A DNA stretch of 64,000 bases, taken from contig SKYA01000028.1 in the NCBI GenBank assembly GCA_007128135.1, forward strand, positions 1,136 through 65,135, in the 5' to 3' direction. Below the pieces are notes generated by a model that saw nothing but the letters and a program-made list of their open reading frames with translations, searched no databases and was not told the DNA's origin. Origin of the DNA: Paracoccaceae bacterium. Lineage in GTDB: Bacteria > Pseudomonadota > Alphaproteobacteria > Rhodobacterales > Rhodobacteraceae. Numbering within the stretch: the stretch's first letter is position 1; each line of letters starts with the position of its first letter. Of the stretch, positions 55,986 through 62,894 are shown piece after piece. The position numbers and the translations under genes are program-made.

Positions 55986-57197
55986 GTGAGCCACGAGGCA
56001 GACAGCAAGACGGCATATCCGGGCAGCGCGGGTGAGGTTTTCAGGGCCTTCCTGAAACTGGGCCTGACCAGTTTTGGCGGACCGATCGCGCATCTGGGCT
56101 ATTTCCGGGACGAGTTGGTGATAAGGCGCAAATGGCTGGATGACCGGGCCTATGCCGATCTGGTTGCCCTTTGCCAGTTTCTGCCGGGGCCTGCCTCGTC
56201 TCAGGTCGGCTTTGCGTTGGGCATGGCGCGCGCGGGCTGGCCGGGCGCGCTGGCGGCCTTTATGGCGTTCACTCTGCCGTCAGCGCTGATCCTGCTGGTC
56301 TTTGCGATGACTGCGGCCAGCATCACGGGGCCGGTGGGGACAGGCGCCATGAACGGGCTGAAGATCGTCGCCGTTGCCATTATTGCCCAGGCAGTCTGGG
56401 GAATGACGAAGTCACTCTGCCCCGACAGGGAACGCGGCGCCATCGCTGTGGCCGCTGTGGTCGTACTGGCTTTCGTACCCGGGGTGTCTGGCATGATCGG
56501 CGCGATTGTACTCGGGGCGGCATCAGGTCTGATGCTGGGGCGTGGAACCGGCATACCGGTTGGAGGCCATGTCGCCCTTCCAGTGACGCGCCGGGGTGCG
56601 CTCGGCGCGCTGGTCTCCTTTTTCGCGCTGCTGGTGCTGTTGCCGCTGCTGTCGGGGCAGGCGCAGGCATTCGCCGTCATCGACAGTTTCTACCGGGCGG
56701 GCGCGCTGGTATTCGGTGGCGGGCACGTGGTGCTGCCGCTGTTGCAGGCCGAGACCGTGGCAACAGGCTGGGTGGGTAGGGACGAGTTTCTAGCGGGTTA
56801 CGGAGCGGCGCAGGCGGTGCCGGGGCCGCTTTTCACCTTTGCCGCCTATCTGGGGGCCGTGCTGGGACCAGAGCCGAACGGACTCGTCGGCGCGACCCTG
56901 GCGCTGTTGGCCGTTTTCCTGCCAGGGTTCTTGCTGTTGGTTGGTGTGCTGCCTTTCTGGGATAGCTTTCGGAGAGCGCCGCGCGCGCAGTCGCTGATGC
57001 AGGGGGCGAATGCGGCGGTCGTCGGGATACTGGGTGCAGCCCTCTATTCCCCGATCTTTACTGGCGCGATCAGTGACATCCGCGATTTCGCTCTGGCGCT
57101 TGCATGTTTCGTGCTTCTGATGGCGTGGAAGGCACCGCCCTGGATCGTGGTGATCGTGGCGGCTCTGGGTGGTGTCGCGCTGGCACTGTCGGGCTGA
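55986..57197 (+). CDS. chrA: Chromate ion transporter (CHR family)
   Basis: FLKLGLTSFGGPIAHLGYFRDELV and the duplicated second half (ALVFGGGHVVLPLL), typical of long-chain ChrA. GTG start. Confidence 0.85.
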   Translation: MSHEADSKTAYPGSAGEVFRAFLKLGLTSFGGPIAHLGYFRDELVIRRKWLDDRAYADLVALCQFLPGPASSQVGFALGMARAGWPGALAAFMAFTLPSALILLVFAMTAASITGPVGTGAMNGLKIVAVAIIAQAVWGMTKSLCPDRERGAIAVAAVVVLAFVPGVSGMIGAIVLGAASGLMLGRGTGIPVGGHVALPVTRRGALGALVSFFALLVLLPLLSGQAQAFAVIDSFYRAGALVFGGGHVVLPLLQAETVATGWVGRDEFLAGYGAAQAVPGPLFTFAAYLGAVLGPEPNGLVGATLALLAVFLPGFLLLVGVLPFWDSFRRAPRAQSLMQGANAAVVGILGAALYSPIFTGAISDIRDFALALACFVLLMAWKAPPWIVVIVAALGGVALALSG

Positions 57198-57237: not shown

Positions 57238-58206
57238 CTAATTGCCCAGCATCCATTCGCCGCCTGGAAAGAGGGCGTGAAAAGCGAAGGCAAACGGAAT
57301 GTCATGGGGCAGATCGCGCCCGTGTTCATCCCGCACGCGCACCGTGCCCACATCGCGCCCCTGGGCGATGTCGCGGCTGTCCAGGGCCGAGGCCTGGCCT
57401 GGGGTCCAGCTGAGCACTACGCCTGACTCGCGTATCTCGCCTTCCTGGCGCAGCCGCTCAAAGGTCCAGGCGCGGTTGTCCACCCGCACGACGCGGGCCA
57501 GCGGCGAGATGCCGTGGGGCGGGTCTTCGCCCTGATAGAGAAAGGGCCGGACTGCACTGTCATAGCCTACATAAGGGTTCGAGCCGTAGCTGCGCCGCCA
57601 TTCGGGCTCGTCCATCACCAACCCTTCCGGGTTGCGTCCTGCAAACTCGGCCCAGCTTTCCATCCAGCCGGGCAACATGGTCAGTAGCTGGCCGGTGTGC
57701 TGCCCGACGATCCCCTCGCCTGTGGCCTGCTGCCACCAGCTTTCCGTCTCGCGGTCATACATGACCATGTCGGAATGGCGCAGCTTGCCCGAAACGCCGA
57801 AGGTATGGCGCACATCGTCAATGCGTGCGTCAAAGATCATGGCCGAGTTGCAGAGTGGGCAGAAGGTCACGGCGATCGGCTTGCCGCCCACCACGTCATT
57901 GACGATTTCATGCCACATCAGATAGCGGATCGGATAGGCGCGTGCGGCTTCGCCCTGCGGCTCGTAGGTCATCACCGGCTCGCGGTCATGGATGCGGGCT
58001 TCGTCGGAGACGGGGATGAAGGCAGGCTCCCAGATTGCCGGGATGCCATCGCGCGGTGGGCCGCCCGAGATGATTTCGGCCAGATCGACACTCCTTGTAT
58101 CGAAATCGGCCTTGGGGAATTCGGCCCGCCACTGGGCCGGTATGTCGGCCATGACCGGCACGGCGACCAGAATCGAGGTCAGGATCAGGGCGGCAGGGCG
58201 GATCAT
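57238..58206 (-). CDS. DUF3179 domain-containing exported protein
   Basis: Signal peptide, then PRDGIPAI, AYPIRYLMWHEIVND, VTFCPLCNS and GKLRHSDMVMYDRETESWWQQ, typical of DUF3179. Last gene of the sigF operon (12-nt gap). Confidence 0.8.
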   Translation of the reverse strand: MIRPAALILTSILVAVPVMADIPAQWRAEFPKADFDTRSVDLAEIISGGPPRDGIPAIWEPAFIPVSDEARIHDREPVMTYEPQGEAARAYPIRYLMWHEIVNDVVGGKPIAVTFCPLCNSAMIFDARIDDVRHTFGVSGKLRHSDMVMYDRETESWWQQATGEGIVGQHTGQLLTMLPGWMESWAEFAGRNPEGLVMDEPEWRRSYGSNPYVGYDSAVRPFLYQGEDPPHGISPLARVVRVDNRAWTFERLRQEGEIRESGVVLSWTPGQASALDSRDIAQGRDVGTVRVRDEHGRDLPHDIPFAFAFHALFPGGEWMLGN

Positions 58207-58218
58207 GGTGTCTCCTTT

Positions 58219-58824
58219 TCAGTCGATCTGCAATTCGCTGGCGAAAGTTCCTCGTGCCGTCCTGCAATCCTTTGGGTCGGCAGGCTGCATGACCGAGGCG
58301 CGCCGACACAGGCGAACCTGAAACGATCCTTCGATCTGGGGTTGCGGACCCGAAAGGTCCAGCAGGGTGAAGGCAAAGGCGTCCGACCCCGGCAGGTCGG
58401 GGGTTTCCCAGTAGTCAACGAACCCGTCGGGCCTGTAGGTTACGCGGGCATCAAGGGGCTGCACGCCGGGCCTGGCATCAGGGGGCAGGGCGAGGTTTAC
58501 GACCAGCCGGGCGGTTCCGGCCGCGCCCTCCAGGCTGATTGCGTCGAGCGTCGCAAAGCGTGTCATTCCGGCGCGTTCAGGTACAGGCTGGAACTGCTCT
58601 GGCGCGTCGGCGAGGTCGAAAAGCATGAACGGAGCGTTCTCGACAGATGCGGTCGCCGCACCCATCTGCAGAAACAGGGCGACTGACAGGAGAAGAACCG
58701 CGCAACGGTGCCTCGATCCCGGGCTGGAGCGGCCGGGGCGCGACAGTACCGCGTGTCGTCGCGCGAGGCTGTGGGCGAATGAGTCATCCTCGCCAGCGCG
58801 GACAGGTCCATGTTCACTCACCAT
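58219..58824 (-). CDS. Hypothetical membrane-anchored periplasmic protein (sigF operon gene 3)
   Basis: ATG at 58824 overlaps the nrsF stop (ATGGTGA). A hydrophobic segment CAVLLLSVALFLQMGAATA is followed by a ~145-aa domain with two Cys. The start codon choice is uncertain. Confidence 0.5.
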   Translation of the reverse strand: MVSEHGPVRAGEDDSFAHSLARRHAVLSRPGRSSPGSRHRCAVLLLSVALFLQMGAATASVENAPFMLFDLADAPEQFQPVPERAGMTRFATLDAISLEGAAGTARLVVNLALPPDARPGVQPLDARVTYRPDGFVDYWETPDLPGSDAFAFTLLDLSGPQPQIEGSFQVRLCRRASVMQPADPKDCRTARGTFASELQID

Positions 58825-59450
58825 TTCAGCAACCTCGGACCCGCCAGCCCGCCTGCCAGAGCAACCATCAGGATTGCCGCTGAATAGGCGGGAAGGGAAA
58901 ACAGTGCTGCGTCCTGGTCGCAGTAAAGTGAGTAGATCGCAGCGGCCAACCCGCCCGCCATCAGGCCGCCAGCGGCGCCGGTGAGCCGAGGCTGCAGTGC
59001 TGCTCCTGCCGAGAGTGCCCACAGCACCGCGGCAAGCAGTGGCAGCGCAAGCGCCGGGATTGACGCCAGACAGGTCAGCAGCGCAGGCGTGCCCAGCGCA
59101 GCCGCCAGCCCTGTCAGTCCGTCGCGTGCAAGGGCCAGGGCAAATCCTGCAACCAGAAGGGCAATGAACAGCCCCGTCAACCAGAAGCGTCGCTGCCAGC
59201 GCTGGCCCGGATGTGACAGGGCAAAGGCCAGCGCGCCCGCGACGATAACCAGACCCGAAGGCACAAGGGTCTTTCCCGCAACGGGCGAGGTCAGTGCCGC
59301 GGTCAGATCGGGCCTGAGGCCCCAGAACAGCACAAACAGCATCAGCGAGACCCCAATGGCCAGCGGCAGGGACCGCATCATGCGCTGCGCGACTGTTGCC
59401 TGCGGCAGGGTATCGGCGGCGAGGACGGCTATCAGGTCATCGGTTTTCAT
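58818..59450 (-). CDS. nrsF: Anti-sigma-F factor NrsF (DUF1109 family, polytopic membrane protein)
   Basis: MKTDDLIAVLAAD N-terminus typical of DUF1109 and six predicted TM segments. ATGA overlap with the upstream ECF sigma gene. Two Cys residues (LLTCLAS, SLYCDQD). Confidence 0.8.
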   Translation of the reverse strand: MKTDDLIAVLAADTLPQATVAQRMMRSLPLAIGVSLMLFVLFWGLRPDLTAALTSPVAGKTLVPSGLVIVAGALAFALSHPGQRWQRRFWLTGLFIALLVAGFALALARDGLTGLAAALGTPALLTCLASIPALALPLLAAVLWALSAGAALQPRLTGAAGGLMAGGLAAAIYSLYCDQDAALFSLPAYSAAILMVALAGGLAGPRLLKW

Positions 59451-59959
59451 TCGATCATCCTTTCGCGAAGCTGCGCGATGCTCTTGAGGGCCCTGTGAAG
59501 GGCCACGCGGACGGCTCCCTCCGACATGTCGAGCCGCCTGGCAGTCTCTGCCGTGGTCTCGCCATACAGTCCAAAGGCGCGTACGATCTCGGCAGCGCGG
59601 GGCTCGAGTGCATCGAGTACCTTCTCCATATCGCGCCCCTGCATCGGATCGGGACCACATTCAACCGCCAGGGCTCCGGCGAATTCGTCGATCGACAGTT
59701 CCACGCGCCGCCCGCGCGCACGGAAGGCGTCCACAACCTTGTGACGGGCTATGGCATAAAGCCAGGGGCGCAGGGGCGCGTCCTCGTGCCATGTGTGGCG
59801 TCTGGTGTGGATGGCGAGCAGGACGTCCTGCAGGATGTCCTCGCAGGTTTCGTGGGTCATATTGTTGCCGCGCCCGCGCACGACCGCACGCAAGGCAGGC
59901 GTGATTGCCTGCAGCAGACGCCTGTATGCCGCAGCATCGCCACGATTGGCGGCACGCAT
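59447..59959 (-). CDS. sigF: ECF-type RNA polymerase sigma factor (SigF-like, paired with NrsF)
   Basis: Region 2 (EDILQDVLLAIH...RPWLYAIARHKVVDAFR) and region 4 (ETTAETARRLDMSEGAVRVALHRA). ATG at 59959 follows the GGGAGGA RBS. The ORF track starts at TTG 59989. Confidence 0.85.
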   Translation of the reverse strand: MRAANRGDAAAYRRLLQAITPALRAVVRGRGNNMTHETCEDILQDVLLAIHTRRHTWHEDAPLRPWLYAIARHKVVDAFRARGRRVELSIDEFAGALAVECGPDPMQGRDMEKVLDALEPRAAEIVRAFGLYGETTAETARRLDMSEGAVRVALHRALKSIAQLRERMIE

Positions 59960-60006
59960 CAAATCCTCCCAGGCTTCAGGGTTTTCCAAACTTCCGCATC
60001 CCCCTG

Positions 60007-60032
60007 TTCGTTCCGCGTAGCTAACTTGTTAC
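60007..60032 (-). promoter_or_regulatory. ECF SigF-type promoter candidate for sigF-nrsF operon (GTAACA-N16-CGAA)
   Basis: The minus strand reads GTAACA (60032-60027), 16 nt, then CGAA (60010-60007). This matches the remembered Caulobacter SigF motif GTAACC-N16-CGAA and lies ~45 nt upstream of the sigF ATG. Confidence 0.5.
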
Positions 60033-60100: not shown

Positions 60101-60126
60101 GTAATTCTGCCGGGGATACAGGCGAA
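60101..60126 (+). promoter_or_regulatory. ECF SigF-type promoter candidate for the bufferin-like operon (GTAATT-N16-CGAA)
   Basis: GTAATT at 60101-60106, a 16-nt spacer, then CGAA at 60123-60126. The geometry is the same as the divergent sigF promoter. It lies ~50 nt upstream of the DUF2282 ATG. Confidence 0.5.
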
Positions 60127-60175: not shown

Positions 60176-60487
60176 ATGTCGACCAAGCACCTTGCTCTGC
60201 CGCTTGCGGCCTCGCTCGCAACTGCGCTCACCCTCGCCGGTGCTCATGCGCACGCCCAGTCGGCCACGATGGAAAAATGCTATGGCATTTCGCTTGCAGG
60301 CGAGAATGACTGCGCCGCCGGCCCCGGCACCACCTGCGCGGGCACATCGACGGTTGACTATCAGGGCAACGCCTGGACGCTGGTTGCGACCGGCACCTGC
60401 ACTGAGATCGAACTGCCCGAGATGGCCGATGGCACAGCGCGCGTCGGATCTCTGGACGAAATCGATCGCGATCTGCCACCGGCCTGA
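60176..60487 (+). CDS. bufA: DUF2282 (BufA1-type) secreted precursor peptide of a bufferin-like RiPP
   Basis: Sec signal peptide [27 protein letters not shown], then [43 protein letters not shown] with four Cys in the DUF2282 pattern. AGGAG RBS 9 nt upstream of ATG 60176. Confidence 0.85.
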
Positions 60488-60540
60488 TCGCGTCCCGGGG
60501 CGGGCAACAGCCCCGCCCCGATCCCTTGCAGGAGTGGGCC

Positions 60541-61392
60541 ATGACACAGCTACCCGCCACGACCGGTCTGGGCTTCAAGGCGGAACATTTCCGCGACATC
60601 ATGGCCGCCAGGGGCGCCCTGGGGTTTCTTGAGGTCCATGCCGAAAACTACATGGGCGAGGGCGGGGTACCCCATGCCATGCTGGCCGCCCTGCGCGAAG
60701 ACCATGCGCTGTCACTGCATGGTGTGGGTCTTTCGATCGGAGGCGCAGAGGCGCTGGACCGTGATCATCTGGCGCGCCTGCGCGTGCTGATCGACCGCTA
60801 CAGGCCCGAGAGTTTCTCGGAGCATCTGGCATGGTCGAGCCACGGCGCCGCATGGCTGAACGACCTGCTGCCCCTGCCCTATACGGACGAGACCCTGGCG
60901 AGGGTCTGCGCGCATGTCGATCAAGTGCAGGAGACGCTTGGCCGCCGTATGCTGCTGGAGAATCCGGCAACCTATGTCACCTTTGAATGCTCGACCTGGA
61001 CCGAGACCGATTTCCTTGCCGAAATCGTACGGCGCACGGGTTGCGGGCTGCTGCTGGATGTCAACAATGTCTTTGTCTCGGCAACGAACCACCGTTACTG
61101 CCCGCGCGCCTATCTGTCGAGTTTCCCGCGTCATGCCGTGGCCGAAATCCATCTGGCAGGGCATGACACCGAGGAACTGCCCTCCGGCCCGCTGCTGATC
61201 GACAGTCACGGCGCGCCGGTGGCAGACCCGGTCTGGACACTCTACGCCGAGGTCCTGGCGCAGACCGGCCCCCTGCCGACCCTCATCGAATGGGACACCG
61301 ATGTGCCGGAATTCGAGGTTCTGCTGGGCGAGGCCGCCCGCGCGACTGCCCTGCTGGATGCCGTGAAGCAAGGCCATCCCGATGCAGCCTGA
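60541..61392 (+). CDS. bufB: DUF692 / MNIO-family (MbnB-like) multinuclear non-heme iron oxidative enzyme
   Basis: GLGFKAEH..., [55 protein letters not shown] and LIEWD are the characteristic DUF692 TIM-barrel motifs. AGGAG RBS. Confidence 0.85.
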
Positions 61393-62131
61393 ACCCTCGC
61401 ATGCCGCGCTGCAAGCCCGGTTCCACGCCGCGCTCTGGCAACCCGACCCGCCTCGTGGGCTCGCCGCCGTGGCGCAAGACGAACTCGCGCAACGTTTTGC
61501 CGTCTATCGCAACAATGTCCAGCACAGCCTGACCCGCGCGCTGGCGGCGCGCTTTCCCGTGGTCGAGCAGATCGTGGGGGCGGCCTTCTTCACGGCCATG
61601 GCGCGGGTGTTCATTGCGGCCTCGCCTCCGGCCGACCCGGTCATGCTGCGCTGGGGAGGCGTCCTCCCGGCCTTTCTGGACGGGTTTCCGCCCGCTGCAC
61701 AGCTACCCTATCTCGGTGATGTCGCGCGGTTGGAATACGCTCGCGGTCGCGCCTGTCACGCTGCAGATGCGCCCTCGGTCGCGCCCGAAGCCCTGAATGT
61801 GCCCGGGCTCGAAGACCTGCGATTGCGCCTGCATCCGTCAGTGCATCTTTTTGCCTCGCCGCATCCGGCAGTGCAGATCTGGCAAGCGCATCAGCCAGGC
61901 AGCACTCGTGCCCCGCTCAGGGCGGGGCCGAACCATGCCGTGATTGCGCGCGCGCCCGATTTCGCCGTTGTGGTCGAACCAGTCGATGCCGCCAGTTTCG
62001 CCGTGCTTTCGATGCTGTCGAAGGGCGCGACGCTTGGTCATGCGGCGAGCCAGGCCGACCCCACGCCCGCACTGACGCTGTTGCTGCGCTACGGGCTGAT
62101 TTCCGATGCACTGACAGGAGATATCCAATGA
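61382..62131 (+). CDS. bufC: DUF2063 protein (BufC-type partner of the DUF692 enzyme)
   Basis: [32 protein letters not shown]...FI is the typical DUF2063 N-terminal region. 11-nt overlap with the DUF692 gene. Confidence 0.8.
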
Positions 62132-62616
62132 CGCATGCCACTGACACAGCCCGGACGGGCCTTGCCACCCGTGTCCGCGATCTGATCCGCCAGTCAAACG
62201 CGCTGGCCAGTCACATCCCGCAGGATCTCGTCACGCTTGCGGCGCGTATCTTCCCGGCGGTTGTCTTCTGGCAATCCGCGCGCACCAAGGTCGATGGCTT
62301 TTCGATAAAGGACTCGACCTGGTTCCTGTTCGAGCATGTCTATGCGCTGCCCCTGATCCCGCCCGCAGTGGCAGCGGTAATGGCCACTATGGCCGAACAT
62401 GTGCTGCCCGTGCTGCTGATCCTTGGTCTGTTTGCGCGCTTCGCCGCGCTGGGTCTGTTGATCATGACGGCGGTCATCCAGTTCCTTGTCTTTCCCGGTG
62501 CCTGGGTGACGCACGGGCTCTGGGCTGCGGCGCTTCTGGTCACGCTCGCTCTGGGGCCGGGGCGGCTGGCACTCGATCATCTGCTGAGGCTTGAGCCTGG
62601 CATATCGAGGGACTGA
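62128..62616 (+). CDS. bufD: DoxX-family integral membrane protein (BufD-type)
   Basis: ~160 aa with four hydrophobic segments and DoxX-like features ([25 protein letters not shown]). ATGA overlap with the DUF2063 gene. Confidence 0.78.
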
Positions 62617-62805
62617 CCTTCGGCACGGATCAGGCGCGCCTCGATTCTTGCCGGTCGCCGCCGCAGCCCGTTCCGTCAAGCGCGGCCAGGGCTGATGGCG
62701 GAGTCATCACAACGCGTTCCAAGTACTTATTCGCGCTCGCCACCCTTTGGAGCAAGGCAATCCCGGGACACTGACCCGGATCGACAATGGCACTCTTGTA
62801 AAACA

Positions 62806-62881
62806 TGGTGAGCCCGACAGGATTCGAACCTGTGACCCACTGATTAAAAGTCAGTTGCTCTACCAACTGAGCTACGGGCCC
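62806..62881 (-). tRNA. tRNA-Lys (anticodon UUU), CCA encoded
   Basis: The reverse complement folds as a 76-nt cloverleaf. Acceptor GGGCCCG/CGGGCTC, D arm GCTC-AGTTGGTA-GAGC, anticodon arm ACTGA-CTTTTAA-TCAGT, T arm ACAGG-TTCGAAT-CCTGT, then ACCA. Confidence 0.95.
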
Positions 62882-62894
62882 ACGCATGGCTGGC

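Follow-up and report, generated by a model that had tools for sequence, protein, structure and literature searches.

Four adjacent genes in a 64-kb stretch of Paracoccaceae DNA (64,000 nucleotides of contig SKYA01000028.1, hereafter the window) raise the question of whether they form a complete biosynthetic cluster for a Buf1-type bufferin, also called a captophorin, and of whether the neighboring sigF and nrsF genes control it. We conclude, with a probability of roughly 0.87, that this locus, bufABCD, is such a cluster and is controlled by the adjacent SigF/NrsF pair. We assign the Buf1-type identity because four Pfam matches, an equivalog assignment of the enzyme BufB, the cysteine register of the precursor BufA, a set of invariant iron ligands in BufB, and the fold of the partner protein BufC all point to it. 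All the defining features of a Buf1-type cluster that a sequence can reveal were found here, namely the BufA1 profile, the four cysteines, the signal, a BufB with its ligands, BufC, and a DoxX protein.

The gene content, protein signatures, promoter motifs, and their conservation were observed directly. The open reading frame (ORF) list and the raw sequence place the four same-direction genes at 60176-62616 on the plus strand (Table 1). A gap of 53 nt separates bufA from bufB, bufB and bufC overlap by 11 nt (ATGCAGCCTGA), and bufC and bufD share an ATGA overlap; the first-pass annotation had described this layout, and it proved right in every detail. An AGGAG Shine-Dalgarno sequence lies 9 nt 5' of the bufA ATG and another 6 nt 5' of the bufB ATG. 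Profile searches matched the four products to PF10048, PF05114, PF09836, and PF07681, all far above the curated cut-offs, and these are the DUF2282, DUF692, DUF2063, and DoxX families that the same annotation had named from the letters alone.

BufA aligned with positions 1-50 of the 53 in the PF10048 profile (E 1.3e-24; 86.4 bits against a cut-off of 22.4). It is made up of a 27-residue signal-like N-terminus (60176-60256) and a 76-residue core (60257-60484), in agreement with the Sec signal and the mature peptide of about 76 residues proposed earlier. The N-terminus carries Lys4, a hydrophobic stretch rich in Ala and Leu (mean Kyte-Doolittle value of 2.0 in a 10-residue window), and a cleavage site between AHA and Q; this signal call comes from a simple N-terminus rule rather than a dedicated predictor, and the rule is satisfied by 71 of the 77 BufA homologues. 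The signal peptide is the sole hydrophobic stretch of the protein. The core contains Cys8, Cys19, Cys27, and Cys48, with the motifs NDCAAG, TTCAGT, and GTC following downstream of Cys8. The spacing of 11/8/21 residues, which bears out the DUF2282 cysteine pattern claimed at first, is shared by every one of the 77 aligned homologues, and the pattern C-x10-C-x7-C-x20-C occurs once in the six frames of the window, at bufA. We calculated a pI of 4.05 and an unmodified monoisotopic mass of 7765.51 Da for the core, and we predict a mature mass of ~7755.43 Da (-10.08 Da). A weak match of BufA to DUF6801 fell below the cut-off and was set aside.

BufB, the candidate multinuclear non-heme iron oxidative (MNIO) enzyme, matched PF05114 at 2.1e-106 and passed the NCBIfam equivalog NF050167 MNIO_BufB ("MNIO family bufferin maturase") with 386.9 bits against a cut-off of 310. 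It stayed below the cut-offs of the HvfB, ApyH, MbnB, and ChrH equivalog models, scoring 241.6 bits against 360 on the HvfB model and 50.5 bits against 325 on the MbnB model TIGR04159. Its closest solved structure is the DUF692 protein 3BWW of Histophilus somni (8e-42); matches to the TglH and MbnB structures ranged from 1e-15 to 1e-8, and MbnB itself is a distant relative (E 1e-8 to 6e-11). MbnB binds iron through His54, His90, Glu133, Asp163, Asn166, His192, Asp208, His210, and Glu239 (PMC9060507). In HMMER alignments, BufB has all nine equivalents, H60, H95, E140, D173, N176, H204, D221, H223, and E250, consistent with the full DUF692 motif set reported at first; H60 and E250 were assigned by motif and invariance, the printed alignment to MbnB of M. 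trichosporium OB3b stopping short of both. The nine residues are invariant across 79 homologues.

BufC matched PF09836 at 1.7e-23 and has two domains, an N-terminal MNIO-binding domain (DUF2063) and a C-terminal RRE-like alpha/beta domain. Neither the BufC sequence by itself nor a 28-sequence profile retrieved a relevant relative from PDB sequences. An AlphaFold2 model from a 41-sequence alignment (pLDDT 90.1, pTM 0.86) had TglI (8hci_A, E 9e-6) and NGO1945 (3dee, E 5e-5) as its only significant fold matches in the PDB. The relation to these two proteins thus emerged by fold comparison alone, and it agrees with the proposal that the third gene encodes an HvfC-like MNIO partner. BufD matched PF07681 at 2e-16 and has hydrophobic segments; a DoxD match was below the cut-off and was set aside. 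The DoxX component, said in the first-pass annotation to have no assigned role, was still described as uncharacterised in a July 2026 preprint on HvfB (10.64898/2026.07.17.739211).

The closest described counterpart is in Caulobacter vibrioides, where buf1ABCD (CCNA_03363-03366, equal to CC3254-CC3257) and sigF-nrsF (CC3253-CC3252) comprise the same six genes in the same order, with the same four Pfam families; the likeness to the Caulobacter bufferin operons noted at the outset therefore extends to gene set and order across CC3252-CC3257. The four buf genes of CC3252-CC3257 are SigF-dependent in Caulobacter (PMC3511200). We compared BufA with Caulobacter BufA1 by way of the Pfam profile and published residue numbers rather than by sequence alignment. 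On this basis, Cys12/23/31/52 of BufA1 and Cys8/19/27/48 here have identical spacing, and the flanking residues reported for BufA1 are matched: Glu two positions before CysI, Tyr after CysI, Ala after CysIII, and, in the second beta-strand, Trp at CysIII+13 and Val at CysIII+16. The two precursors differ in core length (76 residues here, 68 in BufA1), in the acidic tail after CysIV (28 residues here, a tail also present in close Rhodobacterales relatives, versus 16), and in the residue after CysII (Ala here, Lys in Caulobacter). The promoter logic, GTAACC-N16-CGAA in Caulobacter, and an NrsF cysteine pair 50 residues apart are common to both systems. A difference is the -35 hexamer of bufA, GTAATT here. 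The sigF operon here also has two genes beyond the Caulobacter set, orfX and a DUF3179 gene, and, unlike Caulobacter, the 64-kb window has no buf2 cluster. The Caulobacter-type sigF-nrsF/bufABCD arrangement otherwise extends unchanged into Rhodobacterales.

Both regulatory proteins are recognizable. SigF, an extracytoplasmic function (ECF) sigma factor, has Sigma70_r2 and r4_2 domains and passes the equivalog NF009165 (202.8 bits; cut-off 198). Its ATG is preceded by GGGAGG and agrees with the gene call on the public contigs; an alternative TTG start lies at 59989. sigF and nrsF overlap by 4 nt and diverge from bufA. NrsF matched PF06532 at 6e-36, and its Cys127 and Cys177, 50 residues apart and invariant in 29 homologues, correspond to Caulobacter C131 and C181; replacing these residues de-represses the regulon in that species.

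From the 186-bp spacer between sigF and bufA, two SigF-type motifs of the pattern GTAAYN-N16-CGAA point outward, one toward each gene (Table 1). The published Caulobacter SigF site is GTAACC-N16-CGAA (PMC3511200). When both strands of the window were searched for GTAAC[ACG]-N15-17-CG[AT]A, the sigF-facing site was the only match with zero mismatches. About 20 related loci in which sigF and bufA diverge carry an equivalent outward-facing pair at similar distances: the motif lies 48-54 nt 5' of bufA in L001, L003-L005, L009, L013, L015, and L050 (L numbers denote the loci and contigs compared), and 12-54 nt 5' of sigF in the ~20 loci. The closest relatives can be aligned in register across their upstream regions. 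A promoter scan found no sigma-70-type promoter, and the intergenic spacers of the buf and sigF operons held no terminator-like match. The first-pass annotation had regarded buf as coupled to sigF/nrsF both physically and, apparently, in transcription. The physical and regulatory link stands; co-transcription does not, since the coupling is regulatory and runs through divergent promoters in a shared region.

By homology to Caulobacter buf1, we infer the chemistry, metal specificity, and inducing signals as follows, drawing on PMC11626156, a labelling study (10.64898/2025.12.15.693703), and work on HvfBC and fontiphorin. Metal or thiol stress in the periplasm would inactivate the membrane anti-sigma factor NrsF, the bearer of the conserved Cys127/Cys177 pair. 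The freed SigF would transcribe bufABCD from GTAATT-N16-CGAA and its own operon, sigF-nrsF-orfX-DUF3179, from GTAACA-N16-CGAA. In the cytoplasm, a heterodimer of BufB, the multi-iron oxidase, and BufC, the RRE-type partner, would use O2 to convert Cys19 and Cys27 of BufA to 5-thiooxazoles. Sec would export BufA, signal peptidase would cleave after AHA27, and a Cys8-Cys48 disulfide would form. The folded 76-residue peptide would then bind one copper, as Cu(I) or Cu(II), in the periplasm via the two thiooxazoles (two N and two S), and by this chelation it would buffer copper stress.

The Caulobacter system offers a functional precedent. Buf1 there is induced by copper, protects against copper, and yields a -10 Da product, with dissociation constants of ~6e-15 M for Cu(II) and ~7e-20 M for Cu(I) (PMC11626156), and mass spectrometry and nuclear magnetic resonance directly demonstrate that BufB1/BufC1 modify BufA1 (PMC11626156; 10.64898/2025.12.15.693703). 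The biology that the first-pass annotation described, with thiooxazoles at the central cysteines, a disulfide between the outer ones, and copper chelation in the periplasm, agrees with these two reports. For the present locus, the scheme yields exact and testable predictions for the cleavage site, the -10.08 Da shift, the promoter positions, and the NrsF cysteines.

Several observations weigh against a SigF-controlled copper bufferin. BufC and BufD fall under the NCBIfam HvfC and HvfX cut-offs even though both pass Pfam (BufD scored 49 bits on the HvfX family model, cut-off 80), and NrsF, which also passes Pfam, scored 80.5 bits against a cut-off of 300 on the NCBIfam NrsF model. The bufA-facing -35 hexamer GTAATT departs from the GTAACR of the relatives. 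Over the whole window, the SigF motif count is that expected by chance (30 found, 28.4 expected); what speaks for the promoters is therefore their position, orientation, and conservation. Finally, SigF/NrsF homologues elsewhere respond to chromate, cadmium, or hypochlorite, so that copper need not be the trigger here.

This last point leads to an alternative in which the cluster makes a bufferin whose main trigger or target is another thiophilic metal or an oxidant, such as Cr(VI), Cd, Au, or reactive chlorine species, with the peptide, the DoxX protein, and the DUF3179 protein serving as a periplasmic thiol/oxidant defence. Caulobacter SigF was first characterized as responsive to chromate and cadmium (PMC3511200), Azospira and Brucella SigF/NrsF systems have been described in the context of hypochlorite defence (PMC4436054; PMC8315932), and the presence of doxX in bufferin clusters has been suggested to indicate protection against other stresses (PMC12452194). 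Gene neighborhoods elsewhere fit as well: orfX-DUF3179 adjoins msrPQ in L171, and DUF3179 adjoins CcdA or thioredoxin genes in L167, L102, L108, and L146. We nevertheless consider this alternative unlikely. Caulobacter bufA1 reporters respond to Cu and show no response to Fe, Zn, or Mn, Buf1 picks copper out of a metal mixture, and the adjacency of the chromate transporter gene chrA to buf is not conserved; the sequence itself holds nothing that discriminates between inducers.

Two further alternatives deny that a modified peptide is made at all. That the cluster is a silent or decaying remnant would fit the bufA-facing -35 hexamer, weaker than in relatives, and the origin of the sequence from a metagenome-assembled genome. 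We judge it very improbable: all eight ORFs of the buf and sigF operons are intact, with Shine-Dalgarno sequences and translational-coupling overlaps, every catalytic residue and precursor cysteine is conserved, the base composition of buf (0.61-0.67 GC) is the same as that of the flanks, and the identical protein was found on three independent contigs. It is harder still to credit that the first gene encodes an unmodified small membrane or periplasmic protein while its neighbors act on something else. PF10048 did carry the Pfam title "predicted integral membrane protein" in the past, and some precursor genes have no adjacent MNIO gene (PMC12452194). Against this, the one hydrophobic stretch of BufA is a cleavable signal peptide, the modification of BufA1 by BufB1/BufC1 was shown by mass spectrometry and nuclear magnetic resonance in the orthologous system, and practically every one of the 80 related loci keeps bufA, bufB, and bufC together in this order.

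Other known systems resemble this cluster to differing degrees. The gig operons of Cupriavidus metallidurans and Legionella pneumophila have the same gene set, a four-gene DUF2282-DUF692-DUF2063-DoxX operon that transition-metal stress induces (PMC11626156), and GigA (WP_011519119) is the Buf1 example modelled in PMC12452194. Their hosts are beta- and gamma-proteobacteria, unlike the host here, and we drew the likeness from published descriptions and, for GigA, the Pfam profile, rather than from a sequence alignment. The closest beta-proteobacterial BufB homologues that we fetched are 60-63% identical (L061, L065, L074, L078). The hvfABCX genes of Haemophilus influenzae (oxazolin) and the fontiphorin, gonophorin, and bulbicupramide systems likewise combine an MNIO enzyme, a DUF2063/RRE partner, a DoxX protein, and a precursor with a Sec signal (10.64898/2026.07.17.739211, PMC13097082). 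Captophorins with EGKCG repeats have a 5-thiooxazole product and bind copper (10.64898/2026.07.17.739211, PMC13097082), and the site-3 residues N175, D242, and H244 of HvfB correspond to N176, D221, and H223 of BufB. The precursors set the two types apart: the one here is a folded four-cysteine DUF2282 domain and that of the hvf type an unstructured EGKCG repeat, and since BufA has no such repeat, it does not qualify as a precursor of the HvfB/oxazolin type.

Methanobactin biosynthesis (MbnA/MbnB/MbnC) shares the MNIO fold, the nine identical metal-ligand residues, the need for a partner, and a product that binds copper. That product, however, has oxazolone and thioamide groups and serves in copper acquisition, as opposed to periplasmic buffering by bufferin, and MbnA is a short leader-core precursor without a Sec signal, whereas BufA is a 103-residue Sec-signal protein. 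With TIGR04159 below its cut-off and a precursor unlike MbnA, the locus does not belong to the MbnABC systems.

Thousands of genomes are already on record with this architecture, which can be named automatically, and the locus is a standard Buf1-type cluster. The class name captophorins has been proposed, with 21,424 precursors charted (PMC13097082); MNIO-PME1 clusters in the supplement of that paper contain DoxX in 67.8%, DUF2282 in 55.1%, and NrsF in 14.1% of cases, DoxX being frequent and not obligatory, and the layout with sigma factor and NrsF genes is listed as a major type of Buf1 cluster (PMC12452194). The view in the first-pass annotation that such genes are normally left as hypothetical or DUF proteins is outdated: Pfam now names PF10048 "BufA1" and PF09836 "HvfC_N", NCBIfam has its BufB equivalog, and NCBI gives the product name "HvfC/BufC family peptide modification chaperone" to Rhodobacteraceae homologues (Yoonia, Roseinatronobacter). 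As to its companion statement, that nothing is known of the family in marine Rhodobacteraceae, we found no experimental work on Rhodobacterales bufferin clusters in the literature. Among the first papers found, two that deal with members of Rhodobacterales, Paracoccus marcusii and Rhodoalgimonas, mention DUF692; their titles concern secondary-metabolite potential and pan-genome analysis.

BufB homologues of 60-80% identity with full bufABC(D) synteny occur across Rhodobacterales and Rhizobiales. The exact locus and its proteins are already public in the metagenome-assembled genome GCA_007119805.1 (SKOY01000061.1) and in two ENA assemblies (L081-L083). Among named relatives, Natronohydrobacter, Roseinatronobacter, and Yoonia stand nearest, and a "marine" origin of the host is therefore not established. 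Separately, we noted BufB homologues on 505 plasmid or chromid records, including 73 from Escherichia and 136 from Ralstonia; bufferin-type clusters are therefore often found on mobile or secondary replicons.

Hairpins lie on either side of bufA (Table 1). The 5' stem-loop sits within a conserved leader, GGGACYGCA...CCC, that the window shares with L001-L007; L007 has a TTGGG/CCCAA variant, and in other clades this position before bufA is occupied by different hairpins. On the 3' side, a GC-rich stem of 8-15 bp follows the bufA stop in most of 71 related spacers, with differing sequences (median z -2.2). Covariation is weak for both, and we claim no more than that such structures recur. They may make the precursor transcript more stable or terminate a part of it. 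By acting as a partial terminator or by stabilising the mRNA, the 3' hairpin could raise the precursor relative to the enzymes, and structurally recurrent hairpins flanking bufA may set the precursor-to-enzyme ratio. An Rfam scan found no known RNA family within the buf operon.

The two additional genes of the sigF operon form the only element of this locus that, to our knowledge, lacks a prior description, a modest novelty. orfX shares 7 nt with nrsF and probably belongs to the sigF operon; the DUF3179 gene begins 12 nt past orfX, with a strong Shine-Dalgarno sequence. OrfX has one hydrophobic segment and a conserved C-x16-C pair, has no match in Pfam or NCBIfam, and has only 20 homologues, all unnamed, among 5.8 billion proteins. 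In all nine contexts examined (the window and eight other contigs), DUF3179 directly follows orfX. The pair adjoins a sigma-nrsF pair in five of them (the window, L165, L166, L168, and L169), and in L084 a sigma gene stands at the cut end of the contig; orfX adjoins bufABCD in two contexts, the window and L167. In most of these contexts orfX is located behind SigF-type promoters, and perfect SigF-type motifs lie 5' of the orfX operon in L084, L165, L169, and L170, the last without a sigma gene nearby. In L171 (5001-8103), the msrPQ genes beside orfX-DUF3179 encode Oxidored_molyb and Ferric_reduct proteins. As a side observation, msrP (CC2748) is a member of the SigF regulon in Caulobacter.

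The DUF3179 protein matched PF11376 at 2.4e-81, and its motif C116-P-L-C119 (CPLC) is invariant in 81 sequences; the family is listed among UxxC/T selenoprotein families (PMC9312934), the selenoprotein form being found in other taxa. Without orfX, DUF3179 directly follows bufD in nine loci (L014, L018, L102, L106, L108, L109, L110, L122, and L160) and follows bufABC in L146. A CcdA-like gene comes after DUF3179 in L102, L108, and L146, and in L167 (4814-7009) a CcdA/DsbD-type membrane protein and a thioredoxin-like gene lie beside DUF3179 and the buf operon. Because CcdA/DsbD-type genes adjoin DUF3179 beside buf operons in these four loci, we suggest that a thiol-disulfide relay feeds DUF3179. 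Of 80 close DUF3179 homologues, about 70 adjoin neither buf nor sigF, and we therefore rejected the idea that the DUF3179 family as a whole is dedicated to bufferin. A consistent link to SigF is seen only where DUF3179 is paired with orfX, and the DUF3179-buf link is real for a subset.

In a subset of Rhodobacteraceae, orfX-DUF3179 looks like a two-gene periplasmic module of the SigF/NrsF regulon that has so far gone undescribed. We tentatively propose, as a possibility that we ourselves doubt, that it acts as a thiol-redox or copper-handling partner of bufferin. It might, for example, maintain the proper redox state of the thiooxazole thiols or of the structural disulfide, a role that would be comparable in logic to the Scs copper-tolerance system. 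As candidate accessory genes of the SigF regulon, orfX and DUF3179 could open a way to the function of DUF3179.

We also observed a gene for a 309-335-residue protein upstream of orfX-DUF3179 in L084 (853-1854), L168 (4905-5912), and L165 (4916-5845). Its signal-like N-terminus is followed by low-complexity repeats and by a conserved C-terminal domain with a CxxCH motif at its end; the repeats are Cys-rich and of the CAANP type in L084 and L168, and (EAEG)n in L165. A perfect GTAACC-N16-CGAA precedes the gene in L084 and L165, and no MNIO gene was found in the three loci. The gene may encode another kind of Cys-rich periplasmic protein under SigF control.

Past the sigF operon of the window, chrA is present, as the first-pass annotation had remarked, 3 kb away with two other genes between. 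This neighborhood is not conserved: chrA lies within 6 kb of buf in none of the 80 related loci, and no credible SigF motif was found 5' of chrA. We rejected a functional link between chrA and buf on these two grounds, and the adjacency is probably incidental.

Table 1. Positions of the buf and sigF operon genes, promoter motifs, hairpins, and chrA in the window
Feature	Position	Strand	Description
chrA	55986-57197	+	full-length chromate transporter; convergent with DUF3179 gene
DUF3179 gene	57238-58206	-	periplasmic protein; PF11376
orfX	58219-58824	-	201 aa; periplasmic or membrane-anchored protein without family
nrsF	58818-59450	-	membrane anti-sigma-F factor; PF06532
sigF	59447-59959	-	170 aa from ATG; ECF sigma factor
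SigF-type promoter facing sigF	60007-60032	-	GTAACA-N16-CGAA; 1 mismatch to GTAACC-N16-CGAA
SigF-type promoter facing bufA	60101-60126	+	GTAATT-N16-CGAA; 2 mismatches to GTAACC-N16-CGAA; -10 ends 50 nt before bufA ATG
5' untranslated region stem-loop	60133-60158	+	GGCGGG-N14-CCCGCC between -10 element and bufA Shine-Dalgarno
bufA	60176-60487	+	103 aa; Buf1/DUF2282 precursor; PF10048
Post-bufA hairpin	60497-60519	+	GC-rich GGGGCGGG(C)-loop-(G)CCCCGCCCC; 9 nt past bufA stop; no U tract
bufB	60541-61392	+	283 aa; MNIO (DUF692) bufferin maturase; PF05114
bufC	61382-62131	+	249 aa; DUF2063/HvfC-BufC partner; PF09836
bufD	62128-62616	+	162 aa; DoxX-family membrane protein; PF07681

Downstream of the buf operon, the sole matches of the Rfam scan were at a tRNA locus. 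A tRNA-Lys(UUU) gene lies at 62806-62881 on the minus strand, between bufD and dapF, and an 85-aa ORF at 62630-62887 overlaps it and is probably spurious.

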